DNA of 64,000 nucleotides. Source: Escherichia phage phita32. Within the stretch, counting starts at the first letter, position 1. Each line of letters begins with the position of its first letter. The stretch lies in sequence record PQ758395. The stretch is one strand, 5' to 3'. The notes under the pieces are model-generated. The model saw nothing but the letters and a program-made list of their open reading frames with translations. It did not search any database and was not told where the DNA came from. This document shows, one piece after another, positions 1 through 28,567 of the stretch. Both the position numbers and the translations under genes were made by a program.

Positions 1-2528
1 GTCCTTATCAAGCTCAGCGTGTTTCTGCAATCTTCCTAAGACGTGCCAGAGCTGGCAGGATTATTGAAGTCACCTGCAATATGCGAGGTTTCAAATTTAA
101 ACCTGGTCGTTACGTTACAATGGACCTCCCAAGTATTGGTATAGTGGGCCAAGAAATGAGGGTTCTTGAATGGGAGTTCACCAAAAATGGCGGTGTCAAG
201 GTAAAACTTCGTCAAGATGCTAAAGAGTGGAATGATGCCACAGGGCAACTTCCGGATTCCGGCGATGTAGATATTCCGATATCCCCGTCCGGTGTAGCTC
301 AGCCGCAAAACTTCAGATACTCCGTTCTCCAAGCTGGGGAAGTAACTCACGGTGTTTTGGCTTGGGACAACGTTGGAACTTACGCTCAAAATATTGTGCA
401 GGTAAGAAAGAACGGAGAGATTGTTTGGACAGCACAGACAGTTGAGCAGTTTGTCAAAGTAGAAGGCTTGACCAAAGGGTCATACACAGCAACCGTGGTT
501 GCAACATCTTATAAAGGTGGTGTATCTCCGGAAGCATATTGTGAGTTCAACATTCAGGCACCTGAAGCTCCTGTTTCTGTGGAGGTTAAACAGGGATACT
601 TTGCTATTACCCTGATCCCGCACAGCAGAGACTTGGCTAGTGTAAGCACCCAGTACGACTTTTGGACATCTGGGATGACAAGATTGCCAGATACCAGTGA
701 TGCAACCGTTACTTCAAAAGCCACTCGTATGGGTGTTGGTTCAACTTGGACATCTGAAGGTCTGCAGAACGATAAGATTTATTACTGGTATATCAGGACA
801 ACAAATGCTTTTGGTTCATCTGCTTTTGTGGAGTGTGCAGCCCACTGTTACACATCCATAGAAGATCTTATGCCACAGATTGATGCTGAGTTCAAAAAGA
901 CAGAGACTTATAAAGAGCTTACCGCCAATCTTGATAATGCAGTCAAGGAAATGGATAAAAATGTTGGTGCAGTCAATGACCGTGTTACTAGCATTTTTGA
1001 AGAGCTTGGGGATACAATAGAGGGTGTTGTCAGAGAGACGACAGAAAAATTTACAGGGGTTAATGGAGAAATTTCTACCCTTAACAGTAAGCTGGTAGCA
1101 GCTCAGCAATCATTTGACGATAAACTTGCAGCAGAGTCTGGTAGGCTTGGGTCACTAATCGAGACAACAAATAGATCAACCGTTGATCTTGTTAATCGTA
1201 AAACTCAAGCATTGAGTGAGCAAATAACTGCAACTCAAGGTACTCTGCGGGAAGAGTTGAAGAACACTGAGAGCAAACTTAACTCCTCTATTCAAGAAAC
1301 CAACAAGGCAACAACAGATCTGCTAAATAAGACAACGGAAGCTATTAAGCAGGATCTGGTGGCAGCTACAGGGAAGATCACCAAGCTGGAAGATGATGTG
1401 CAGAAAGAGGTTGCCAATCTGCAAGCATCTATTCAAGAAACTAATAGTACAACAGTTGATCTTGTTAATAATACAGCCACAGCGATCCGTCAAGAACTTA
1501 CCTCTGCAAAACAAGAAATTGTTGACGAAATGGGTAATATTGATGAGCTCAGGGCTACAGTATCTAATACCTCTAAAGCTGTAACAACACTTGAGGGTAA
1601 AATAAATGCTCAGTGGGGAGCTAAGATTCAGGTAGACTCTGCAGGGAATAAGTATGTTGCAGGTATCCAGCTAGGCATGGAGGGGTCTGGAGGACAAGTT
1701 CAATCCTACTTCATGGTTAGTGCAAACAATTTTGCGGTATACAACCCTGGAAATGGAACAGCAACCCTTGCTTTCGCAATCAAGAACAACCAAGCGTTCT
1801 TGAAAGACGCTTTTATAGAGAATGGCACGATCTCCTCTGCCAAGATCGCACAAGAAATTTCGTCAAACAACTACGATGGCAACGGGTACCATAAATACGG
1901 TTGGTACATTAACAAGAACGGGCGCGCCCAATTTATGGATGTGTGGGTGAAAGGCAACATCAACGCCAGTTCTGGTAACTTCACAGGGGCAGTTAACGCC
2001 ACCAGTGGTACCTTCCGTGGAGATGTTTATGCCAATAATGGTAACTTTAGGGGTACCATAGATGCAACTGGAGGTACCTTCCGTGGGCGTGTAGAAGCTT
2101 CTGTTATCCGTGCTAACCAGTTCGAAGGTGCAATAGTTGCACACAGAACCTACGGTGACTGTCCTCCAGTATACAACTCGCAGCAGAGGGTTTGCCGTTG
2201 GAGGTGGAGATATGTGGACAACGTTTCAGGACAAGGTAAGAACGTAACATTCTTCTTTAAACTAAACGGAACATTGTCTGGCTCCCAGCTTAACGTTTGG
2301 ATAGCCGGACATCAAATCCTTGCAGGTAAGAAGTACGGAAACGACAACAACGGCATGTGTGCGGTAGGGATAACTGGTCTAGGTGAACAAACTATAGACA
2401 TTATTGTCGAGATTTACACACCGTGGTCAACGTCTAGCGTGACAGGTGTCACAATCTCCTGTCCCACTGTGATCGTTAGTCGTTCTAACTCAAGCTTCCA
2501 GGGACCTTGGAACGAGTCTCACGACTAA
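1..2528 (+). CDS. Tail central fibre / host-specificity protein, J-like (5'-partial; frame open to window start)
   Basis: Frame is open from nt 3 with no stop before the ATG at 81, so the N-terminus lies upstream of the window. Long coiled-coil heptad region, a segment KINAQWGAKIQVDSAGNKYVAGIQLGMEG..SYFMVSANNFAVYNP resembling the conserved domain of lambda-J-type tip proteins, and Gly-rich GNFTG/GTFRG repeats. Terminator follows. Confidence 0.55.
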   Translation, partial: PYQAQRVSAIFLRRARAGRIIEVTCNMRGFKFKPGRYVTMDLPSIGIVGQEMRVLEWEFTKNGGVKVKLRQDAKEWNDATGQLPDSGDVDIPISPSGVAQPQNFRYSVLQAGEVTHGVLAWDNVGTYAQNIVQVRKNGEIVWTAQTVEQFVKVEGLTKGSYTATVVATSYKGGVSPEAYCEFNIQAPEAPVSVEVKQGYFAITLIPHSRDLASVSTQYDFWTSGMTRLPDTSDATVTSKATRMGVGSTWTSEGLQNDKIYYWYIRTTNAFGSSAFVECAAHCYTSIEDLMPQIDAEFKKTETYKELTANLDNAVKEMDKNVGAVNDRVTSIFEELGDTIEGVVRETTEKFTGVNGEISTLNSKLVAAQQSFDDKLAAESGRLGSLIETTNRSTVDLVNRKTQALSEQITATQGTLREELKNTESKLNSSIQETNKATTDLLNKTTEAIKQDLVAATGKITKLEDDVQKEVANLQASIQETNSTTVDLVNNTATAIRQELTSAKQEIVDEMGNIDELRATVSNTSKAVTTLEGKINAQWGAKIQVDSAGNKYVAGIQLGMEGSGGQVQSYFMVSANNFAVYNPGNGTATLAFAIKNNQAFLKDAFIENGTISSAKIAQEISSNNYDGNGYHKYGWYINKNGRAQFMDVWVKGNINASSGNFTGAVNATSGTFRGDVYANNGNFRGTIDATGGTFRGRVEASVIRANQFEGAIVAHRTYGDCPPVYNSQQRVCRWRWRYVDNVSGQGKNVTFFFKLNGTLSGSQLNVWIAGHQILAGKKYGNDNNGMCAVGITGLGEQTIDIIVEIYTPWSTSSVTGVTISCPTVIVSRSNSSFQGPWNESHD

Positions 2529-2536
2529 CCTTTAAA

Positions 2537-2563
2537 GCCCCGCTTCGGCGGGGTTTATTTTTA
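2537..2563 (+). terminator. Intrinsic terminator (GCCCCGC-TTCG-GCGGGG + T-run)
   Basis: GC stem with TTCG tetraloop followed by TTTATTTTT immediately after the stop at 2528. Confidence 0.6.
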
Positions 2564-2633
2564 TGCTCAGATTGACTATTGTTACAAAATTTGGTAAAAT
2601 ACCTTGTAGAGATTTTCATACCGGAGGAGTGAC

Positions 2634-4124
2634 GTGGCTAAGTATGGATTGACAGAGGCTGGTTTCGTTATACCAACCCTAAATGACCTAATCGTTGAAA
2701 CTAAGCAAAGCCTGATCCGTGCTTTTGGCGAAAACTTCAACGTACAGAGTAACTCCGTTGCAGATAAGCTGACCACTATCTTCAACGAGCGAGAGTATCA
2801 ACTTATTCTTATGGCAGCATCTGTATACGCATCACAGACGCTGTATGGGGCAGAAGGTATCTACCTAGATGAGCTTCTTGGAAGACAGGGTATTTACCGA
2901 AGAGGCCGTTCTAAATCATCAGGTACCTGCCAGTTGACAATCAACACAACTGTGCCGTACAATATGATTTATGATTCCAAAACTTATACGCTGGACAGTG
3001 GCAACTTTGTTCTTAGCAACGATGTGCAAGTAGCAGGGAATCTTATTGCTCACAGAATAAATGCTCCAGACCTAAGGATTGGGAAATACAACTTCCAAAT
3101 TACCAACCAGACAGATGGAAGTATCAAAACAAAAAGCCTGGTTTTAACAGATAAATCTCTGGACTCTTCTGATTTGCCAAGCTTTTACGGAGAGATTAAG
3201 CAATTCATTGTCGATAATACAACCCTGTTGAACGACGATTTGATTCAGATCGATATGTTGACAGGAACGTTGTGGATAGGGTACAATTCGAATCTTGATC
3301 AAGTTGGACTTAACAGTAGGGTAGATTTCAGAGTATCCCCGATTGTAGGGGAAAGAACTATCACACTGGATGTTATCGCTAACGAGGCTGGTGAGCTGTC
3401 AAGAGAAGCAGAAACCGTGACAACAATGTCACCTACTCCTAGTGGATTTATCAAGCTTACCAACCGAGAAAGATTCAATGAGGGCAGGGATGTTGAGAAA
3501 GACTCAGAGTATCGCTTAAGAGCTTCCAGCACAAAACAGTTAACATCTAAGGCTACCCGTCCTGCAATCCTTAGCGCTGTAAGCGAGGTGAAAGGTGTTG
3601 AGAAAGTGAGAGTGTTCTCCAACAACACCGATAAAACTGATGCTAAAGGTATACCTCCTTACAAGTTCCAAGTGGTTGTGTTTGGTGGTGCAACGGAGGA
3701 CATTTGCCAAGCACTTTACCAAACTATAGCCTGTACGAACAGGACTTATGGTAATATTTTCTACGATGTCACTACATCTGACGGTCAAACTGAAAGAATT
3801 TATTACTCCAAGGCAAACACCTACCGCCTAGATGTAAGAATTACCTACTCCGGTGCTGCGCTTTCTACAACCGAAAAAGATGCCATTATAGAGGCTCTTT
3901 TGCAGGTTGTTAACGGACTGGATGTTGCAGATACGTTGTATAATATCCAATTGGTAGGTGCTGCATCTGCTGCTGTGTCAATAGGCAGATTTAATAGACT
4001 GGTAATTCAAGTTAAATCCGTAGGAGCTTCTGATGAAGCTTACACTACAAACGATATTGTTGCGAACATGACCGAGGTGTTTGACCTCGACGAAAGTAAT
4101 ATAACTTTCCAACAAACTATTTAA
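2634..4124 (+). CDS. Tail/baseplate structural protein (496 aa)
   Basis: GTG start with GGAGG RBS; position directly after the J-like gene; N-terminal region loosely reminiscent of baseplate-J-type proteins (not verified). Confidence 0.4.
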   Translation: MAKYGLTEAGFVIPTLNDLIVETKQSLIRAFGENFNVQSNSVADKLTTIFNEREYQLILMAASVYASQTLYGAEGIYLDELLGRQGIYRRGRSKSSGTCQLTINTTVPYNMIYDSKTYTLDSGNFVLSNDVQVAGNLIAHRINAPDLRIGKYNFQITNQTDGSIKTKSLVLTDKSLDSSDLPSFYGEIKQFIVDNTTLLNDDLIQIDMLTGTLWIGYNSNLDQVGLNSRVDFRVSPIVGERTITLDVIANEAGELSREAETVTTMSPTPSGFIKLTNRERFNEGRDVEKDSEYRLRASSTKQLTSKATRPAILSAVSEVKGVEKVRVFSNNTDKTDAKGIPPYKFQVVVFGGATEDICQALYQTIACTNRTYGNIFYDVTTSDGQTERIYYSKANTYRLDVRITYSGAALSTTEKDAIIEALLQVVNGLDVADTLYNIQLVGAASAAVSIGRFNRLVIQVKSVGASDEAYTTNDIVANMTEVFDLDESNITFQQTI

Positions 4125-6906: not shown

Positions 6907-7947
6907 ATGTCAAAACCTAGTTTTCCATTAGAGATTTGGGCAGAGGAGGATCAGGTTCTGCCTAACACCCACAGACAGAACAGGCTACGCCCGATTGATG
7001 ATTTGTGGAGAAAAGGTTGGGATCTCGGTCAAAAGCCCTCATGTGAAGAACTTAACTATATTTTCAATATGCTCGGAACTTGGGCAAAATACATTGCTGA
7101 CGAGCAGATCCCAGCTCAAGAAGGCCGTTATCTGGTACGTGATAATAACTTGAGTGATCTTTTGAACATCCCTGTTGCCCGTAGAAACCTTGGGATTATT
7201 ACTAAGGAAGAGGCAGACGCCAGGTATGTAAAAGTTACAGGTGATACAATGACAGGCCCATTGGGTTTGCAACGTATCAACTTTAAAGCTGCCGAGACAG
7301 ATAAGGCTTGGATAGAGACAACTATTGGCCCAGATAAGACAACTCTCGACTTTGGGTTAAGTGATAATACCGGGTCGTTTGATGATGGTGGTACATCTAC
7401 AGTGGATGCGTTCCGTTGGAGATTCCAGCCAACTCAGCCGGATATTAATCCAGAGTTCACTTTGATGTACCTTAACGCGATCACGGCTAACCGTGCGCTG
7501 TTGAAAGTGGTAGGCAATGTTGAAGTTGTCGATAACATGAGGTGCAATAACCTTACTATCAGCAATACAGCGACATTCACCAACTGTAATGTGGCTAGTC
7601 AGTTGACGGCTGGGTCAGTGTATGTTAATGGTGGTGCAAGTTGTGACAGTATGGTTGTAAGAAGCCAGCACTGTGTTGTCGGTAACAGAAATGTGGTTCG
7701 CTCTGTGAACGGAGTGACGGCTAACGGTAACGGTGATGTAACGATCACTATCCCGCAGACAGGTGTGCAAGACATCAGAATCGGTGCAAGACTTGTGGAC
7801 GGAGTTTCTGAATCTCCAATCCGCAACGGCTACGTTGTCACAGGCTGGCATTTCGGTGACAAAAAAGAGATGCGTGGTTCAACCTACTGGGCAGGACCTT
7901 TACAAAAACTTGTAAATGGTCAATGGATCACTGTTAATTATGCATAG
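6907..7947 (+). CDS. Tail fibre protein, paralog A (346 aa)
   Basis: Shares N-terminus (PLxIWAxxDxVL..GW..) and C-terminal 14 aa (LQKLVNGQWIT-V/I-xYA) with the ORF at 8959..10005; central region differs. Confidence 0.5.
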   Translation: MSKPSFPLEIWAEEDQVLPNTHRQNRLRPIDDLWRKGWDLGQKPSCEELNYIFNMLGTWAKYIADEQIPAQEGRYLVRDNNLSDLLNIPVARRNLGIITKEEADARYVKVTGDTMTGPLGLQRINFKAAETDKAWIETTIGPDKTTLDFGLSDNTGSFDDGGTSTVDAFRWRFQPTQPDINPEFTLMYLNAITANRALLKVVGNVEVVDNMRCNNLTISNTATFTNCNVASQLTAGSVYVNGGASCDSMVVRSQHCVVGNRNVVRSVNGVTANGNGDVTITIPQTGVQDIRIGARLVDGVSESPIRNGYVVTGWHFGDKKEMRGSTYWAGPLQKLVNGQWITVNYA

Positions 7948-7961
7948 ATCGGAGGACTAGC

Positions 7962-8546
7962 ATGAAAATACTTCAAGAGTTTAAACTTTACCAACCGGGA
8001 TCTGGCGAATACCGCACCAACAAGGAAACCAAGGAGCTGACCCCTCAAGAGGTTGAGGATTACACAGCATACACTGGGTATTTTTTACGTAATGATGATG
8101 GCGATTGGTATGTGCAGTCACGAACATTGCGACAAGAAAATCCGGGTTGTATCTTCCTACTTGTTGACGAGAAGGGAATTCTTAAGACATCTACAGAAGA
8201 ACCTGATGCCTTATGGCCTGCTCCAGGTCTTCGTGTGGTTATCGCCAAAAAAGAAGAGGTACCAGAAAACATTATGCTTCACCACGACGCTTTGCGTTTA
8301 GTTGGTGATGAATTTGTCACAGACAATGAATTCTTTGTTCAACAGGCAGAGGGTGTCATAGAGACAGAACTTGCTTGGGCTACTGCTAGAATTGGTGCCT
8401 ATCAAGACATGATTGACCTTGAATATGATCTTACTGATGACCAGAAACGTAACATCAGAGATTTGAAAATGTACAGGGTAAAACTTCTTGAAATAGATAC
8501 ATCTAAAGCCCCTGACATTTTCTTCCCGGAGCGACCTACCCTCTAA
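7962..8546 (+). CDS. Putative tail fibre assembly/chaperone protein (194 aa)
   Basis: Small gene immediately downstream of a tail fibre gene, as is typical for Tfa-type chaperones; GGAGG RBS. Confidence 0.3.
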   Translation: MKILQEFKLYQPGSGEYRTNKETKELTPQEVEDYTAYTGYFLRNDDGDWYVQSRTLRQENPGCIFLLVDEKGILKTSTEEPDALWPAPGLRVVIAKKEEVPENIMLHHDALRLVGDEFVTDNEFFVQQAEGVIETELAWATARIGAYQDMIDLEYDLTDDQKRNIRDLKMYRVKLLEIDTSKAPDIFFPERPTL

Positions 8547-19949: not shown

Positions 19950-20516
19950 TTATTCAAACTGCAATAGCAAGTCCACCACCGCACTAGGCCTGTCAACAAA
20001 TTCCCCAGGCCCACATGCCCATAGAGGGTATCCATCAACATACCGCCATATCCAACCTGCAGTGTGAAGCTCAAGCAGGGCAGTGCCGTCCTTACTGTCA
20101 ACCACCCTTTCCCACAGTGTTGGGCAGCGAAGCTTGAGAATCGGGTCCCCGCCCTTATACCCGTCCATGTAGATACCCATTGCAAAGTTCAGCATCATCT
20201 TTTTGTGCACTGATCTCTTACTGAGAGTGCTCATCACTTCCTCTTTGTGAATGTTTGTAAGCTTCTCTTTGGCTACCCGCAGATCGTTGCAACCATTGTT
20301 CAGCAGATCTTCCAGGCACTTGATCCGAAGGTCGTGAATGTCTTTGTCGTGTACCGTTGGCACAGGGTCGTAGCGGTATAGCACTGTTGATACAAGGTTG
20401 CTCGGGTGTGGGTCTGACAGCAACCCATAACCCCAATACTCTTCTGTATCTGAAAGGACAAGGCACCCAATGTCTCTGTCAAGCTTTCCTGTGTTGTAAG
20501 CCACATTGACCGCCAT
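19950..20516 (-). CDS. Hypothetical protein (188 aa)
   Basis: ORF in the minus-strand operon. Confidence 0.35.
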   Translation of the reverse strand: MAVNVAYNTGKLDRDIGCLVLSDTEEYWGYGLLSDPHPSNLVSTVLYRYDPVPTVHDKDIHDLRIKCLEDLLNNGCNDLRVAKEKLTNIHKEEVMSTLSKRSVHKKMMLNFAMGIYMDGYKGGDPILKLRCPTLWERVVDSKDGTALLELHTAGWIWRYVDGYPLWACGPGEFVDRPSAVVDLLLQFE

Positions 20517-20518
20517 GA

Positions 20519-20764
20519 CTATAGCTCCACTAGTAAAGTGCTTTCAAAGTGCCGTTCATGCAGACCATTGTAAGGGACAACTTCCACAACGCCATCACGG
20601 ACATATGGAGCCATCATAGTGGTATAATCTCCAAACGGGTTGGTATTGTCACTAACCACAACCACCTTCTGCCCTTCCTTGGCAGAGTGCCAAATAGATC
20701 TGCACTTCATCAGGTGTTCGAGAGCTCCAGGTAAAATTTTGTTACGTTCTTTACGGGTCTTCAT
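20519..20764 (-). CDS. Hypothetical protein (81 aa)
   Basis: ORF, co-oriented. Confidence 0.3.
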   Translation of the reverse strand: MKTRKERNKILPGALEHLMKCRSIWHSAKEGQKVVVVSDNTNPFGDYTTMMAPYVRDGVVEVVPYNGLHERHFESTLLVEL

Positions 20765-21210
20765 AACAGGTATAGCTCCTTATGAAAGTGGTCTTTTAAT
20801 TTCTCACTGAGGAACCTCTTGATACTTTCCTCTAAAGTGTTTTCGATGTAGTCCAGCTTAACTGCTTCGATGGACATATCATAGATCGCCAGCTCTAAGC
20901 TGTCAAGTCCCATCATAGCATGAACCATAAGATTTTCATCTTCAGATACATTCAGGGGACTTCCTATAACATCTGGAGGCAGAATAGTTTCCCAATTATT
21001 CTGGGTGGTAGTTCTCCCGCCATCCACTTTACGGCGCAGTTCGAATGTGTTCTTAGTGTAGAACACTTCATAAGAAACGATACGACTGTCGCTCTCGTAA
21101 TAAACGAAGTTCAGGTAGGAGCCTAGCCGCAGTCGGCAAACTTCTACCCCAAACCATTGTTTCTTATAAGAATTCAGGCTAATGCTGTCGCATTCACGTT
21201 TGCTCAACAC
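20761..21210 (-). CDS. Hypothetical protein (149 aa)
   Basis: ORF, 4-nt overlap with the neighbour. Confidence 0.35.
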   Translation of the reverse strand: MLSKRECDSISLNSYKKQWFGVEVCRLRLGSYLNFVYYESDSRIVSYEVFYTKNTFELRRKVDGGRTTTQNNWETILPPDVIGSPLNVSEDENLMVHAMMGLDSLELAIYDMSIEAVKLDYIENTLEESIKRFLSEKLKDHFHKELYLL

Positions 21211-21226
21211 GGCTCTCTCCTTTTTG

Positions 21227-21460
21227 TTAATCTTCGTAGATCAGGATCTCTGATCTTGGTTTACGCGCTTTCAGGTCTAATTCTATCCAATGCACCATCG
21301 CAGTCTCAAGAAAAACAGCCTGAATGCACCCGTCTTCAACATGTCCCACCAGCATAACAAGATCTTCACCTTCATCATCTGCATCACGAACATACAGAAT
21401 CTCTCCAGCCTCAAAATCTTTCACAACCTGTTTGTTGGATACTTTCCGAATCTTTGTCAT
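21227..21460 (-). CDS. Small paralog family member 1 (77 aa)
   Basis: Shares M-T..(K)..G.VV...D....V.IV..........FDL pattern with the next three ORFs. Confidence 0.4.
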   Translation of the reverse strand: MTKIRKVSNKQVVKDFEAGEILYVRDADDEGEDLVMLVGHVEDGCIQAVFLETAMVHWIELDLKARKPRSEILIYED

Positions 21461-21461
21461 G

Positions 21462-21728
21462 TTAGAATCCTTCCAGGAAGCTCTTGTAGAAAATAATTTC
21501 AGTGTCTACACCTGTCACGATTTTATCGTTTCGGATCTCATCTGTGAGATAGGTGTCGAAACGTAGCACCTGTGTAGTATTGTCACACATCCACTCAGCT
21601 GTGACAATGGCGAAGATTTTCTCATCTTCATTATCTGGTGTAAATGTTACTACTTCACCACATTTAAATTTTTCAATAGTCTGAGTGTTAGCTTTTGGTT
21701 CTGCGATGGTGATTTTTGTGGTCATCAC
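21462..21728 (-). CDS. Small paralog family member 2 (88 aa)
   Basis: Tandem paralog (see 21227..21460). Confidence 0.4.
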   Translation of the reverse strand: MMTTKITIAEPKANTQTIEKFKCGEVVTFTPDNEDEKIFAIVTAEWMCDNTTQVLRFDTYLTDEIRNDKIVTGVDTEIIFYKSFLEGF

Positions 21729-21985
21729 TCTCCTCCTTCTTTCGAATAAGTCTCTCCAAGGATAGTAATTTTGGTGTCAAGCTCTGTAACTTTCATGTTT
21801 GGTGTCAGGTCGTACAATTCATTATTTTCTAAATCAAATCCCCACACACAATGTTCTCCTGTTTTGACAATCATAACTATGTTTTGAATGCCGTCTCCGT
21901 CGCAACTTACCACGGTCCCACACGGAAAACTATCTGCACGCTTTTTGTTCTTAACCTTAGAATTGAATACAATGCTAGTAGCCAT
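21725..21985 (-). CDS. Small paralog family member 3 (86 aa)
   Basis: Tandem paralog; overlapping stop/start. Confidence 0.4.
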   Translation of the reverse strand: MATSIVFNSKVKNKKRADSFPCGTVVSCDGDGIQNIVMIVKTGEHCVWGFDLENNELYDLTPNMKVTELDTKITILGETYSKEGGE

Positions 21986-22248
21986 TATTGTTCCTCCACC
22001 ATAACTTCGCCAAGAATTTCTATGCAGGCATCCATTTCTGTAACAACCAAACTGTGAGGTAGTTCTACAAACACCTTTCTGAACAGGTCAAATGCCCCAA
22101 CATATATGTTTGCAGGATGTGATTTTACAACAAGTGCTGTATTCACATCCCCAAGCTCATCAACAAACATCACCACAGTGCCTGGGGCTACTGAAGACAG
22201 GTACTTCTTAGTTTTACGGTTTGATGCAAATTTTAACTCTGTTGCCAT
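21985..22248 (-). CDS. Small paralog family member 4 (87 aa)
   Basis: Tandem paralog; ends ILGEV like member 3 (ILGET). Confidence 0.4.
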   Translation of the reverse strand: MATELKFASNRKTKKYLSSVAPGTVVMFVDELGDVNTALVVKSHPANIYVGAFDLFRKVFVELPHSLVVTEMDACIEILGEVMVEEQ

Positions 22249-22263
22249 AAATAATCTCCTCCT

Positions 22264-23724
22264 TTATTTAGCGTACTCGATTAATTCCACAGTTTTCCCA
22301 AAGCTAGGGATATAATTTTTATTATACCCTTCGGTGAGAACCCATAGAGTATCGTACTTTTTCCACTTGTTGTCAACAGCCTTTTGTTCAAAGTTATGCT
22401 CAAAGTATAGATCGGTCAGGACGATGACATCTTTTGCATTTGGTATGTTGGCATCCAGATACTCGAACACGCAAGCAGCTGTTGTGCCCCATGTTGAGTG
22501 GACCTCGTAGTTGATCATCTCATCTATGTTGCCGCGAGTGTATACTTTAACCTCTCCAACCTCAGTTGACCAACAGAACATTGTAACCTTAAACTCTTTA
22601 TACAGATTGCACAATCCGGTGATTTCATTGAACATTTTCTTTAAAGTTCTTTGAGAGATCGAGCCAGAAACGTCTAAAGCTACCACAATATCTATGGTGT
22701 TTTCCGGATTACGACCAGGAACAATAACGTGCTGGTTCTTGTTTATAGCCCCAACTTTTCGCATTGTGCTGGTCAAAGACCCAGATCGGCGACCAGGTTT
22801 TCTGTAGGTCAGTTCAGCCTTTCGTTTAGACAACATGCGTTGCTTAATGATGTCTATATAGTTGATTACAGGCTTACCCCTGTTCTTGACAAACTCACGC
22901 ACCGCCTCAGGGCAACGACCTCCGGAAGCTTGCATTGCTGCCTCCAGCATGTCGCCAGAGTCTTGCATGGCCTGATCTTTATCAGATTGGCTGATTACAG
23001 GTTGTGGCTGATCATACCCCATAGCCTTTCCAAGATCATCACTGGTGCCACCGTTCCCACTCATGTGATCATCTGTTTGTCGCTTATCCCCTTGAGAGTT
23101 CTCACCTTTACCGCTCTTACTTTTACCGTTATTCTGATCTCTTTGCTTATCAAGAACTGCATAGACGTTCTCAGCAATCCATCCATGAAACTTCATGTCG
23201 CAGTAGCAGCTGGCTAAGAAGCCAAAAGGCTTACCTTTTACGAACGTAGTGCTTTTCCCCTTCGGGAAGAAAACACAAGGAGGCTTGCTAAAGTCAACCA
23301 CAAGACCTGTGTTGATAACGTGATCACAAGCAATGTTGAACAGTTCCGGCTCAAAGCTTTTACCACGGACCAGGTGATCACAGATAATATGCCCCACCTC
23401 ATGTGACAGAAGAAAGGCCACCTCTTTCACAGATTTTGGGGAATAGAAAACCTCAGCCATCTCAAACTGCTTGTCAGTCAGAGATGCTTTAAGAATGGTT
23501 TTACGCTCATCTGCCAACCCCATAATGAACTCAGGGCTGTAGTAGATGCGTTTATGGTCTGTTGCCATAGTGGAGCACCATGTGTGGTTTTCTACGAACT
23601 GCAACCCTGACAACAGTGTGCCATAAAACGGCAGCTTTTCAAGAAGATACATGCGTGCTGCCTGCAGCATTCGCAAGGCGTCATCTTTTTGTGCGGCAAT
23701 GATTTCTGAACTTCTGCTATCCAT
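22264..23724 (-). CDS. VWA-domain protein with N-terminal HExxH metallopeptidase-like domain
   Basis: HEVGHIICDH zinc motif; VALDVSGSIS (VWA MIDAS-type DxSGS). Probable start is the ATG at 23724 (GGAG RBS) rather than the TTG at 23745, which lies inside a hairpin. Confidence 0.55.
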   Translation of the reverse strand: MDSRSSEIIAAQKDDALRMLQAARMYLLEKLPFYGTLLSGLQFVENHTWCSTMATDHKRIYYSPEFIMGLADERKTILKASLTDKQFEMAEVFYSPKSVKEVAFLLSHEVGHIICDHLVRGKSFEPELFNIACDHVINTGLVVDFSKPPCVFFPKGKSTTFVKGKPFGFLASCYCDMKFHGWIAENVYAVLDKQRDQNNGKSKSGKGENSQGDKRQTDDHMSGNGGTSDDLGKAMGYDQPQPVISQSDKDQAMQDSGDMLEAAMQASGGRCPEAVREFVKNRGKPVINYIDIIKQRMLSKRKAELTYRKPGRRSGSLTSTMRKVGAINKNQHVIVPGRNPENTIDIVVALDVSGSISQRTLKKMFNEITGLCNLYKEFKVTMFCWSTEVGEVKVYTRGNIDEMINYEVHSTWGTTAACVFEYLDANIPNAKDVIVLTDLYFEHNFEQKAVDNKWKKYDTLWVLTEGYNKNYIPSFGKTVELIEYAK

Positions 23725-23735
23725 TAAAACTCCAG

Positions 23736-23752
23736 AAGGGGCCAATGGCCCC
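23736..23752 (-). terminator. Intergenic hairpin (AGGGGCCAATGGCCCCT), partial terminator
   Basis: Perfect GC stem between two co-oriented minus-strand genes, followed on the minus strand by a T-containing tract. Confidence 0.35.
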
Positions 23753-23757
23753 TGTCA

Positions 23758-24747
23758 TTATTTAACGTGCTTGAAAATACCAGCCAACTCGGTCATTGTC
23801 ATGCGAGTGGTCTTCATAAGGTCTGTCATAGCCTTCTCCATAATTGGAGATACTACCATAAAGTTACCCTTGGTGAAACCTTTATTCCAGTCGGTCACTA
23901 ATAGTGGTTTAAGTCCGGCCCCGAGACGCTCACCAGTCAAAGCACAACATTTTCGGATGTATGTGCTCTTAAACTGGCTGAATGACAAGTCAACTTTCAT
24001 ACCTGCATCGTAGAACGTCTGGCAATAGAAAGTGTAAGCTTTGGCAATCTCAACATCGTCAGGCAGTGCAGGAACCTCTTCTGTGAGCTCTTCTTCGCCC
24101 CCTTGAGGCTCTTTTTCCTCTTCGTGATCCTGTTGCATCATTTCTTCAATCTCTTCTGTTACAGGCTCATTTACGATGTCAGAAATGTGCTTGTTGGCTC
24201 CACGATTAGCCATGAAGTTTTTAAAATCCCGCATTGGTGACATATCTTCCTCCCATTCTTCGTCAAAGAGTGCTAGTTTATCCTCTTCCGTTCCATATTG
24301 CAAGATGAAATCTTCAAAAGTGTAATCACCTTTCAATTTCTCCATACGCTCTTCGCTCAGGTGGAGCATCATCTGCTGGACAATTTTTCGATCAGTTTTG
24401 TCTTTAATCAAGACTGCGGTCTTTTTATCTACCAGACAGTCCTTTAGAGAGTTGCATCTCAATCCTACCACACAACAGTTATCAACCGCGTAAGGACCTT
24501 CATCATCTATCCGCTCTAGAGATGGGTAGAAAGGATTTCCCAGTCCGTTTTCATCTGTGTGCATGTCGAAAGGTATAAGGGTATAGTCGCATACCCCTTC
24601 TCCTAAAAGTTTTTTACCAAATAGGAGGTATTCTTCCCACGACAGGTTGAACTCTATATCTCGTTTCCGTGCATTATTCTGTTTGCGTCTATATTTTTTG
24701 AGCAGGCGCTCTAACTCTTCTGGTGTATAATATTTTTCAAGATTCAT
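23758..24747 (-). CDS. HNH-motif protein
   Basis: SLERIDDEGPYAVDNCCVVGLRCNSLK fits the HNH signature (..RID..xxY..DN....C..CN..K). The track start (TTG at 24813) overlaps a promoter, so the ATG at 24747 is preferred. Confidence 0.4.
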   Translation of the reverse strand: MNLEKYYTPEELERLLKKYRRKQNNARKRDIEFNLSWEEYLLFGKKLLGEGVCDYTLIPFDMHTDENGLGNPFYPSLERIDDEGPYAVDNCCVVGLRCNSLKDCLVDKKTAVLIKDKTDRKIVQQMMLHLSEERMEKLKGDYTFEDFILQYGTEEDKLALFDEEWEEDMSPMRDFKNFMANRGANKHISDIVNEPVTEEIEEMMQQDHEEEKEPQGGEEELTEEVPALPDDVEIAKAYTFYCQTFYDAGMKVDLSFSQFKSTYIRKCCALTGERLGAGLKPLLVTDWNKGFTKGNFMVVSPIMEKAMTDLMKTTRMTMTELAGIFKHVK

Positions 24748-24778
24748 GAGTTGTCTCTCGTGCTCTGTAAGTGAAGAA

Positions 24779-24807
24779 ATCGTATCAATTGTCTCAACAG
24801 ATGTCAA
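24779..24807 (-). promoter_or_regulatory. Sigma70-like promoter for the minus-strand operon
   Basis: TTGACA (minus strand) with about 17-nt spacer and TACGAT -10; back-to-back with the + strand promoter. Confidence 0.35.
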
Positions 24808-24820
24808 TATCAAAAACGTG

Positions 24821-24849
24821 TTGACTTTACTCTAAATATCCGATATAGT
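24821..24849 (+). promoter_or_regulatory. Sigma70-like promoter (TTGACT-N17-TATAGT)
   Basis: Near-consensus -35/-10 with 17-nt spacer, about 40 nt upstream of the ATG at 24890. Confidence 0.6.
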
Positions 24850-24889
24850 GCACCCATTCGAAAGAAAACTAACATAGGAGCACTCACTC

Positions 24890-25789
24890 ATGGCAAATCT
24901 TAACAGTTTTAGTACTCGGTGGCAACAGGATATAACAACCAATCTCTCAGCTGGAGATATTCTTTCTGCAATTTACGAGGCTTTGGATGCTAAAGCTACT
25001 TCAAAAGCGGTTTGTACCAACCCGCTAATCCCTATAGTGATGAAGGTGATTGAGCGTAGATTGGTATCTGGGTCTGATAAGTGGACATATTTAGATAATG
25101 AAGGACACACCTATTCCAATGGGTATGTCGATATAAAAGTAGAATACGCGGTATCATACCGCCGGAGCGGTTCTGTGACTTTCAACTTTTCTGGAGGTTT
25201 CCGATCTCTGGCAACTTCACCTTTTGTTTCCTCAGAAGAGAAGTTTGAACTTCCGTTCCTTTGGATGATGGCTAACGCGACAGGAAAAACCCCCGTGAGC
25301 ATTCGCGTAAAATACAACTACAACGGATCTAGTAAGATCTATGCCGAGAGTATCTCAGCAAGTTTTTATTTTGTGATGGGGGATGGAATCCTCAAACATA
25401 TAAAGATGTGCGATATGCATGATGTTATAAATGAAGTGACTGATAAGAATGTTCTGGTGAAGGACCTAAACAATTTCTATACACCTGGGGACTATTACGT
25501 CAACCGCCCACTGTGCATCTTTAATGCTGCACATCCTTTGGGTGAATACCTGATCGTTAATAGTGACATTGCTAACAACATTTTTGAACTGGCAAGAGTA
25601 CAAAATGAGGTATTGACATCCTGCAAGAGTGGTGATAAATTCACTGATGAAGAGATGGGTGTTTTAGAAATGATGGGGTATAAATGCAGTCTTTGGGTAG
25701 ATGAGGTGTTTAATGACTACATCTACGGACAGGATATTTACCCGTTAAAGAAGTATACTGATACAAGTTTAATTTATGCGGGGATTTGA
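24890..25789 (+). CDS. Hypothetical protein (299 aa)
   Basis: First gene of the + strand operon; GGAG RBS. Confidence 0.4.
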   Translation: MANLNSFSTRWQQDITTNLSAGDILSAIYEALDAKATSKAVCTNPLIPIVMKVIERRLVSGSDKWTYLDNEGHTYSNGYVDIKVEYAVSYRRSGSVTFNFSGGFRSLATSPFVSSEEKFELPFLWMMANATGKTPVSIRVKYNYNGSSKIYAESISASFYFVMGDGILKHIKMCDMHDVINEVTDKNVLVKDLNNFYTPGDYYVNRPLCIFNAAHPLGEYLIVNSDIANNIFELARVQNEVLTSCKSGDKFTDEEMGVLEMMGYKCSLWVDEVFNDYIYGQDIYPLKKYTDTSLIYAGI

Positions 25790-27080: not shown

Positions 27081-27383
27081 GTGGCAAGGATGCCACTTAA
27101 AAGAGTAATAAACATGTTATACCAGAAACACGAACTTTGTGTAGAAAAAGAGTTAAATTTTGACAAAGTTATCCACCGATATTGTTATGGGAAAACCAGA
27201 AGACAACTAAGAAGGTGTGCTCCAACATTCTTTCACCCCAGTAGACGGCTAAGTCCTGAAGAGGCGACAGCAGAAAGGGTTGCATACAACTGGGAAGTTG
27301 TGTACGATATTGACAGATCCGATGTGACATCTGTTTTGGAAAACTTTGAAAACACTTACACACAAGTAGAGGACTTTTACTAA
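27081..27383 (+). CDS. Hypothetical protein (100 aa)
   Basis: ORF (GTG start in track). Confidence 0.3.
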   Translation: MARMPLKRVINMLYQKHELCVEKELNFDKVIHRYCYGKTRRQLRRCAPTFFHPSRRLSPEEATAERVAYNWEVVYDIDRSDVTSVLENFENTYTQVEDFY

Positions 27384-28567
27384 TGTCAAGAAACGTATTT
27401 GAAAGTGGTCAAATCACTGTCCGTGAGTTGCCAGCTATCATTCAGTTTGCCCAGCGTCATAACCGATCTGTCCTGATTTTAGGACCAATGGGTGTGGGAA
27501 AGAGTCAGGTGATGAAGCAGATCGCTGATAATATGTTCGGTGAGCGAGATGACAACCTGGTTGACGTGCGGCTGTCAGATAAAGATCCTGCCGACTTATC
27601 TGGGCTACCTATCCCTGTAGAAGCGGATGGAACTACACGTACAGTGTTTGCAATTCCAGAATTTTGGCCTGCAGATCCGGACTGGAGCGGAATTATCTTT
27701 CTGGATGAGCTTACTCATGCAGATAACTACCTGCAAAAGGTTGCAATGCAAATTATGCTCGACCATAAGTGCGGCACCTATGCATTCCCTAAAGGCTCTG
27801 TTTTTGTGGCTGCGGGTAACCGTTCTACAGATGGTGCGGTTCTTTCGGCGCTCGAAGCTCCTCTGGCTAACCGCTTTATCATTGTAGAAGTTACAAGCAA
27901 TGCAGAGGTGTTTATTGAGGACTACGCATTCCTTAATGGGGTTCACTCCTCTGTAATTGGGTATCTGAAAAGAGTTCCATCAGCTATTGATAATTATGAG
28001 GCTATGGCTGAGATTAATTGTCCATCTTTTGCCACACCACGATCTTGGGTTGCTGCATCTGACATCTTGCACGATTTTGACAGCGGTATTATTTCTGACG
28101 CTATGGCCCGTGTTCTTCTGCAAGGTGCTATTGGTCACACTGCAGCGGTAGAGATCTGGACATACCACACCAAGAAACGCAATTTACCGGAAATCGGTCG
28201 GATTATGGCAGGTGGTTGCAAAGAATACGTAGGTCCTAAGCAGCCAGACATCTTGTGGATTCTTGGATCTGAAGGTTGTATCGCTATTCGCAATATGATG
28301 GAAAATGCAAGTATCTCCGACGAAGATCTTGTTAGCTGTGTGGCAAACTTCCTCGATTTCCTTTGGGAAAATTTCAAGGACGAGAACCGAGATTTTGTAT
28401 TCTCAGTCTTTATGGCGATGATGAAACCTAACGCCTTAGGAAATGCCTTGCTTATCGGTAAAGGGCGTGACAAGATCGTTGCTCAACTGATCAAAGCATA
28501 CCCAAACCTGATGAAGATTGTAAAAGAGTTTGGTGAAGAGTTTAGCGCCATTTTAGCTAAAGCTTGA
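27383..28567 (+). CDS. AAA+ ATPase (MoxR/AAA_5-like)
   Basis: Walker A LILGPMGVGKSQV; Walker B IIFLDELTHA; sensor/arginine region VAAGNRS. Confidence 0.6.
   Translation: MSRNVFESGQITVRELPAIIQFAQRHNRSVLILGPMGVGKSQVMKQIADNMFGERDDNLVDVRLSDKDPADLSGLPIPVEADGTTRTVFAIPEFWPADPDWSGIIFLDELTHADNYLQKVAMQIMLDHKCGTYAFPKGSVFVAAGNRSTDGAVLSALEAPLANRFIIVEVTSNAEVFIEDYAFLNGVHSSVIGYLKRVPSAIDNYEAMAEINCPSFATPRSWVAASDILHDFDSGIISDAMARVLLQGAIGHTAAVEIWTYHTKKRNLPEIGRIMAGGCKEYVGPKQPDILWILGSEGCIAIRNMMENASISDEDLVSCVANFLDFLWENFKDENRDFVFSVFMAMMKPNALGNALLIGKGRDKIVAQLIKAYPNLMKIVKEFGEEFSAILAKA

Follow-up and report, generated by a model that had tools for sequence, protein, structure and literature searches.

A two-module array of four small paralogous genes encoding predicted Tudor-like proteins in an rV5-like coliphage

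The window described here is the whole stretch of DNA that was analysed, 64,000 nucleotides (nt) of Escherichia phage phita32 (sequence record PQ758395), and its phage group is Vequintavirus (rV5-like coliphages). The subject is an array of four open reading frames (ORFs) of the minus strand, designated A, B, C and D from the first gene to the last, which form one family of paralogs and fall into a variable module (A + B) and a conserved module (C + D) (Table 1). The 6 kb around the array are 94–95.5% identical in nt to about 120 Vequintavirus genomes, the closest being EmilHeitz/Bas49. A preliminary description of this DNA recorded four tightly packed minus-strand ORFs of 77, 88, 86 and 87 amino acids (aa); coordinates and junctions were checked and the ORFs are present. 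C has an alternative GTG start at 21728, one codon upstream of the ATG, which gives 88 aa; relatives annotate the ATG start. The four ORFs are tightly packed and translationally coupled by their sequence signals: the junctions are TAATG (A/B), GTGATG (B/C) and TAAcATG (C/D), and the last codons of the preceding gene (GGAGGA-type) double as the Shine-Dalgarno sequence (SD) of the next. Stop/start overlaps and SD coupling signals are kept in every lineage examined. Copies of all four genes in relatives are annotated as 'hypothetical protein' in more than 100 genomes. The G + C content across 21150–22250 is 0.37–0.43, somewhat below the 0.44–0.51 of the neighbouring genes; it is a weak signal, consistent with a separate history of the array.

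A, B, C and D are one paralogous family, in which A–C and A–D are joined only via B and by profiles. Pairwise similarity was expressed as Smith-Waterman z-scores against 500 shuffles. A tandem family had been proposed in the preliminary description, to be given up if formal alignment yielded no significant pairwise similarity; the alignment yields significant scores for A–B (19.1), B–C (6.0), B–D (5.5) and C–D (6.8), and no significant similarity by direct Smith-Waterman for A–C (z 1.6) and A–D (z −0.3). A hidden Markov model (HMM) was built from the A/B/E-type clade only (E being the single gene found in place of A + B in rV5-type genomes), with the C and D sequences excluded, and searched against 454 ORFs of the window. 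The top non-self matches are C (expect value, E-value, 7.5e-7) and D (E-value 1.2e-3), and the best background match has an E-value of 0.14; hhalign probability with the same clade is 91.5% for C and 73% for D. Both alignment and profile evidence thus bear out a genuine tandem paralog family. Membership of C is solid; that of D is moderate by sequence and reinforced by position and size. The residues invariant in all four proteins are M1, T3, G23 and one Ile only. The motif earlier ascribed to the whole array, ending in FDL...ILGE, accordingly stands as a signature of A and B and not as a common pattern. No further family member is found elsewhere in the 64-kb window by local HMM search. Identity between paralogs is 23–39% in aa (39% for A versus B) with saturated synonymous divergence (dS), so the paralogs are ancient and show no recent amplification; the earlier term 'tandem amplification' does not suit them.

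AlphaFold2 models were obtained for B (mean predicted local distance difference test, pLDDT, 73; predicted template modelling score, pTM, 0.63) and for C (pLDDT 79.5, pTM 0.66). Both models are all-beta with the same strand order. The predicted fold is a small five-stranded SH3/Tudor-like beta-barrel with an extra N-terminal strand or arm; structure prediction, suggested in the preliminary description as a check on the family, thus gives B and C a shared barrel. The four proteins have a mass of ~9–10 kDa and are all acidic (isoelectric point, pI, 4.2–5.0). The first 20 residues are rich in Lys and Arg; the net charge of the barrel is −7 to −11. Foldseek against BFVD gives as the best non-self neighbours uncharacterised proteins of 70–90 aa, many of them from N4-like phages. 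The predicted likeness to the Tudor fold class does not establish homology or function. No match of A–D to Pfam Tudor, SH3 or KOW is obtained at an E-value of ≤1, and homology at the sequence level to Tudor families (methyl-Lys/Arg readers) is not found in Pfam and PDB profile searches.

Copy number, which the preliminary description had proposed to compare across related phages, does vary: 1 (lineages L006 and L020), 3 (rV5-type) or 4 (AB-type). The three genes of rV5 are ORF14 (E), ORF15 (C, 97% aa identity) and ORF16 (D, 90% aa identity); E is about 40% identical to A and to B. The 117 sequenced relatives split cleanly into 43 with A + B (at least 94% identity) and 74 with E (at least 95%). 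In rV5-type genomes a 230-nt single-gene E body stands in place of the 497-nt A + B body. Nucleotide homology to the rV5-type (~94%) is lost at 22234, five codons into A ('MATE'), and is regained at 21736, where it takes in the last four codons of B and the SD of C; both breakpoints are sharp and fall on gene junctions. A/A2, B/B2 and E/E2 form three clades that are about equally deep (57–62% identity). An origin of E as a recent A::B chimera by unequal crossover was considered and rejected: E is 41% identical to A and 39% to B, and the informative sites are mixed. Exchange of the cassette occurs inside a species, Murica (AB) and Pr121LW (E) having the same species assignment. Both architectures extend to diverged lineages: L009, a diverged uncultured relative with a DUF2201 protein of 82% aa identity, has four copies of AB-type (~71% nt identity), and L019 is of E-type (~88% nt identity). 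Lineage L006, more distant (DUF2201 protein 62% identical in aa), has a single A/B/E-like copy, with the gp17 homolog as the very next gene. L020 has an E-like copy on a 2.7-kb contig with a Krischvirus-like segment and no adjacent DUF2201 gene.

A–D are real, selected proteins, and the two modules differ in constraint. Between the window and L009, aa identity is 59% for A, 62% for B, 94% for C and 91% for D; for other proteins of the region it is 60% (Srd-like), 82% (DUF2201), 60% (gp17), 55% (gp19), 37% (gp20) and 64% (gp21). In this comparison, in which synonymous sites are saturated, the ratio of nonsynonymous to synonymous divergence (dN/dS) is 0.01 (C), 0.03 (D) and 0.16 (A). D keeps 90–91% aa identity across lineages (dN/dS 0.03–0.05), and the values for C and D together span 0.01–0.05. 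No other proteins of the operon are as constrained as C and D; A and B (dN/dS about 0.16) are at the regional average. The label 'rapidly evolving', applied earlier to the locus, therefore fits neither module: C/D are the slowest in the region and A/B are ordinary. Because its constraint is the strongest in the operon, the C/D half is likely important to the phage. Recent horizontal transfer was rejected as an explanation of C/D conservation: dS is saturated versus L009 although the proteins are 91–94% identical.

Within Vequintavirus the C–D block of the window is an island of synonymous divergence. It is 83.5–87.6% identical in nt to all 117 relatives, versus 96–100% in the flanks, and dS is 0.84–0.97 for C/D versus 0.08–0.18 for gp17–gp20. 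Against EmilHeitz, identity turns 100% exactly at the stop codon of D. Tracking of the AB/E type by the C/D alleles was tried as an explanation and discarded, the C/D of EmilHeitz and Murica (AB) being as far from those of the window as E-type alleles are. From this independence of the C/D alleles and from the pattern of breakpoints, the array behaves like two independently shuffled modules with breakpoints at junctions.

Full-length HMM matches in PHROG are phrog_10698 for A (E-value 5e-43) and for B (2e-39), phrog_12861 for C (1e-58) and phrog_12046 for D (2e-51). The three entries, all of 'unknown function', hold the same genes or orthologs as A + B, C and D; they are kept as three unrelated families in PHROG and are united here by profile evidence and the shared predicted fold. 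rV5 ORF14–16, Bas49 genes 0051–0054 and Murica genes 13–16 are likewise the same genes or orthologs. HMM searches of A–D against Pfam, NCBIfam and PADLOC give no match (PADLOC holds models of defence systems; known anti-defence families were not specifically screened), and sequence and profile search of PDB gives none. Among 5.8 billion proteins, a word-indexed search found 27 matches, all close orthologs. With an exhaustive HMMER profile search, 1.84 billion cluster representatives yielded only 13 matches at an E-value of ≤1e-3, three of which are long repetitive proteins (P0030, P0031, P0033), apparently chance partial matches. Scans of IMG/VR, metagenomes and genomes added five loci, each E-C-D or A-B-C-D, with no intermediates. 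Outside Vequintavirus and a few unsequenced relatives the family is essentially absent. Sixteen UNVERIFIED records of the MG0656xx series ('Campylobacter phage C12, A142, ...') are 94–95% identical to E. coli Vequintavirus across the region; their Campylobacter jejuni labels probably result from contamination or from a wrongly named host.

In the sister genera Seunavirus, Henunavirus, Mydovirus and Certrevirus and in phage A7_1 the genes flanking the array are retained, and a local HMM search finds no family member there; the locus is lineage-restricted, and the earlier view of it as accessory is supported. In the annotated regions compared (PVP-SE1, Hena1, KpS11, CR8, A7_1) the gp17 homolog stands directly after the DUF2201 gene; the array is therefore an insertion between two conserved genes. 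A gene of ~85 aa upstream of the DUF2201 gene in Seunavirus, Henunavirus and Mydovirus is unsupported as a displaced member (HMM E-value 4.8).

Table 1. Array, its modules and adjoining features of the operon (positions in the window)
Feature	Coordinates	Strand	Description	Basis
Paralog A	21985..22248	minus	87 aa; first array gene, variable module 1	ORF; phrog_10698
Paralog B	21725..21985	minus	86 aa; second array gene, variable module 1; start overlaps stop of A (TAATG)	
Paralog C	21462..21725	minus	87 aa from ATG; conserved module 2	
Paralog D	21227..21460	minus	77 aa; last array gene, conserved module 2	phrog_12046
Body of A + B	21737..22233	minus	replaceable cassette, 497 nt	blastn breakpoints versus rV5, L005, L018, L019
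C + D block	21231..21710	minus	island of synonymous divergence	nt identity and dS
gp17 homolog (rV5)	20761..21210	minus	downstream gene	context
DUF2201 gene	22264..23745	minus	second gene of operon; DUF2201_N metallopeptidase and DUF2201 vWA-like domains	PF13203 (E-value 3e-28), PF09967 (E-value 3.6e-11)
Srd-like gene	23758..24813	minus	first gene of operon; 'anti-sigma factor' annotation	PHROG matches to Srd and sigma70 decoy; Srd-like in rV5
Promoter candidate	24897..24925	minus	sigma70-like, for the Srd-like/DUF2201/A-B-C-D operon	consensus scan

The array provides genes three to six of a minus-strand operon. The candidate promoter has the form TTGCCA-17-TAAGAT with an extended −10 TG and is half of a divergent pair near 24820–24925. 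No terminator-like site is seen between promoter and array in a sequence scan. The rV5 genome paper describes a transcription unit 11–26 with sigma70 promoters, separated from the late genes by bidirectional terminators, and does not list gp14–16 among the virion proteins detected by mass spectrometry in its main text. The Srd-like ORF is 351 aa long from a TTG, and relatives annotate 311–329 aa; the true start is probably downstream of the TTG. Compared with gp17–gp20, the Srd-like gene is unusually divergent among close relatives (90–95% nt identity, dS 0.51 versus rV5).

The DUF2201 protein is found in 673 phage records, those of Vequintavirinae, N4-like and jumbo phages included, and the array family in only about 117. 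Since most phages with DUF2201 are without the array, this neighbour says little on array function; the weight that the preliminary description gave to a VWA/HExxH neighbour as diagnostic is not warranted, the same gene being present without an array in sister genera, N4-like and jumbo phages. In record DQ832317 of rV5 the DUF2201 gene is given as two overlapping ORFs (ORF12, ORF13), and in the window and other relatives as a single ORF of 486–493 aa; a sequencing error or a frameshift in rV5 probably accounts for the split. PHROG and RefSeq label the DUF2201 and Srd-like proteins 'HNH endonuclease' and the gp17 homolog 'tail protein' (also N4 gp25, PVP-SE1 gp216, gp218). No HNH domain is found in the DUF2201 protein in Pfam (DUF2201_N and DUF2201 only), and both labels look like propagated mis-annotations. 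A gene for a MoxR-type ATPase adjoins the DUF2201 gene in the same orientation in Certrevirus (CR8), A7_1 and N4 (gp24/gp25). In Vequintavirus the ATPase gene (window 27383–28567) and the DUF2201 gene are on opposite strands, either side of the divergent promoter; the ATPase of the window has a weak Pfam AAA_14 match only. The L006 contig (YOKO23-1 scaffold_84) carries a TnpB/IS605 OrfB-like gene (Cas12f1-like_TNB domain) at 2119–3258, just upstream of the Srd-like gene in the region of the divergent promoters; a mobile element seems to have inserted there into the early control region. At 6938–7531 and 7577–8128 of the same contig the homolog of gp19 (window 19950–20516) is present in two tandem diverged copies of 197 and 183 aa, a second tandem-paralog event in the same operon.

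Interpretation starts from the paralogy, predicted fold class, operon position, coupling signals, narrow distribution, dimorphism and selection pattern established above. It is proposed, tentatively and at somewhat less than an even chance, that A–D are early-expressed intracellular protein-binding modules, of which C and D have invariant partners and A + B or E provide alternative specificities. The four genes would be co-transcribed by host RNA polymerase from the sigma70-type promoter, and the first gene of their operon is an Srd-like host-takeover gene. The proteins would be translationally coupled in synthesis, intracellular and made early in infection. Each paralog would bind a different host or phage partner via its diverged barrel surface, and the invariance of the proposed partners of C and D would be the cause of the extreme purifying selection on C/D. 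The promoter-proximal slot would offer alternative specificities, A + B or E, swapped between phages by recombination at the conserved gene junctions. Several points weigh against this proposal. Early timing is deduced from promoter type and neighbours, and protein binding and host targets are likewise deduced. The strong conservation of C/D equally fits a role in the phage's own processes rather than in host targeting. Tight coupling could mean mutual assembly of the proteins instead of separate action. The rV5 genome, BASEL, CRISPRi-ART and Hachiman/EdH4 papers report nothing on these genes, and the Vequintavirinae are reported to be exceptionally sensitive to restriction–modification (RM) systems (PMC8594841).

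Mutual assembly in its full form would make C and D the core of a hetero-oligomeric complex with A + B or E as exchangeable adaptors, which may work with the DUF2201 protein and the MoxR-like ATPase or be their substrate or cofactor. This is judged unlikely, although coupling at all junctions in every lineage is typical of stoichiometric partners, and in Vequintavirus, L006 and L009 the DUF2201 gene is always immediately followed by the array. The MoxR-type ATPase and the vWA-peptidase protein with DUF2201 have been proposed as an assembly chaperone (PMC7824862), and the BFVD neighbours include N4 gp21, encoded three genes upstream of the ATPase/DUF2201 pair of N4. That match is weak (Foldseek E-value 2e-2); adjacency of gp21 to the pair was rejected as an argument, and the likeness is a lead only. 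A fixed stoichiometry sits badly with copy numbers of 1, 3 or 4. Sister genera, N4-like and jumbo phages keep DUF2201 with no family member, and the member in L020 has no adjacent DUF2201 gene within its 2.7-kb contig. Consistent co-occurrence, as for an accessory subunit, is not found, given the 673 records with DUF2201 against about 117 with the family. In a strict counter-defence role, the proteins would be inhibitors or decoys of specific bacterial immune systems, with A + B versus E under balancing selection as hosts carry alternative defence alleles. The proteins are small, acidic and lineage-restricted, with an operon position that is probably early; the two haplotypes (~40% aa identity, each at least 94% conserved) are found side by side, at 43:74, among near-identical genomes and in a single species, both are met again in diverged lineages (L019 E-type, L009 AB-type), and a member is present horizontally in another coliphage lineage (the Krischvirus-related contig). 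Such a role is nevertheless doubtful: no known family matched in Pfam, NCBIfam, PADLOC or PDB, C/D are far too conserved for an arms-race target, the dN/dS of A/B (about 0.16) indicates no positive selection, and the BASEL study reports minor phage-to-phage differences in immunity profile among Vequintavirinae, with high RM sensitivity (PMC8594841). A putative inhibitor role for the four proteins, as suggested in the preliminary description, is plausible.

The same observations can be joined into a more specific account, of rather low probability, in which the two-module, recombination-shuffled set of Tudor-like binders would be a hitherto unrecognised host-interaction or counter-defence family. 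C/D would neutralise an invariant host factor, A + B/E would be an old balanced polymorphism across Vequintavirus species that counters alternative host alleles or defence systems, and the deep synonymous divergence of C/D would be due to hitch-hiking with that polymorphism. Nucleic-acid-binding regulators (RNA-binding or translational) would use the barrel as in Sm, KOW, L2 and cold-shock-like domains, the basic arm contacting RNA or DNA. The Lys/Arg-rich N-terminal 20 residues suit such regulators; the pI of 4.2–5.0 and a barrel net charge of −7 to −11 are unfavourable, and no conserved basic or aromatic surface motif is common to the paralogs, in which only 3–4 core positions are invariant, so that this function is distinctly improbable. 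Least credible of all, and scarcely to be expected, are virion or assembly accessory proteins, such as small decoration or tail-fibre-associated proteins. The region adjoins large lateral tail-fibre genes and the neighbouring gp17 homolog has the PHROG label 'tail protein', but this label and 'HNH endonuclease' look unreliable in the region; the array is on the opposite strand, in the sigma70-driven unit 11–26 with bidirectional terminators before the late genes, and its products are absent from the mass-spectrometry-detected virion proteins given in the main text of the rV5 paper.

Few coliphages are isolated as often as those of the rV5-like group, which also have a place in biocontrol and therapy cocktails; most of their early genes are unannotated. 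The genes of the array are already known, having been deposited many times as hypothetical proteins; apparently new are the merging of three PHROG families, the fold assignment, the AB/E dimorphism with junction breakpoints and the contrast in selection between modules. Phages that are ~95% identical apart from the swap of A + B versus E are available in public collections (BASEL, DSMZ) and amount to a natural experiment. Comparison or exchange of the cassette could reveal a determinant of host range or immunity; otherwise the array is one more uncharacterised accessory cluster.

The array is a small, probably early accessory gene cluster of a lytic phage, a familiar kind that is unsurprising to the specialist. 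Anti-CRISPR loci and the early 'moron' clusters of T-even phages likewise consist of small, early, lineage-restricted genes with variation in presence or allele from one near-identical genome to another and with breakpoints at gene boundaries. Unlike anti-defence clusters, the array has no adjacent regulator (such as Aca) or known anti-defence gene, and its C/D half is ultra-conserved. Among small phage proteins, N4 gp21 and A0A8F3C9H7 of vB_EcoP_SU7 are structurally similar to the predicted barrel (Foldseek E-values 3e-3 to 2e-2, template modelling scores 0.6–0.7); the N4-like proteins have 11–19% sequence identity to the array proteins, and N4-like phages also encode the ATPase and DUF2201 pair. 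Tudor and SH3-like barrels (SMN Tudor 1g5v/4qq6, PHF19 Tudor 6wau, the C-terminal domain of L2, PWWP, KOW) have no detectable sequence relationship to the array members, which differ from them as standalone acidic phage proteins with an extra N-terminal strand or arm. Match scores of the C-terminal domain of UvrD/PcrA (7egs/5dma) and of CarD (4l5g) are no better than those of dozens of unrelated Tudor domains; the RNA-polymerase-interacting domains of CarD, Mfd (RID) and UvrD (C-terminal) share no sequence motif with the array proteins, for which no tie to RNA polymerase is seen, and are a lead only. The reported exceptional RM sensitivity of the Vequintavirinae speaks against a role as DNA-mimic anti-restriction proteins. 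The acidic pI of A–D (4.2–5.0) fits mimics of the Ocr/ArdA/Arn kind; the predicted beta-barrel differs from them. Ocr and ArdA are elongated helical DNA mimics.

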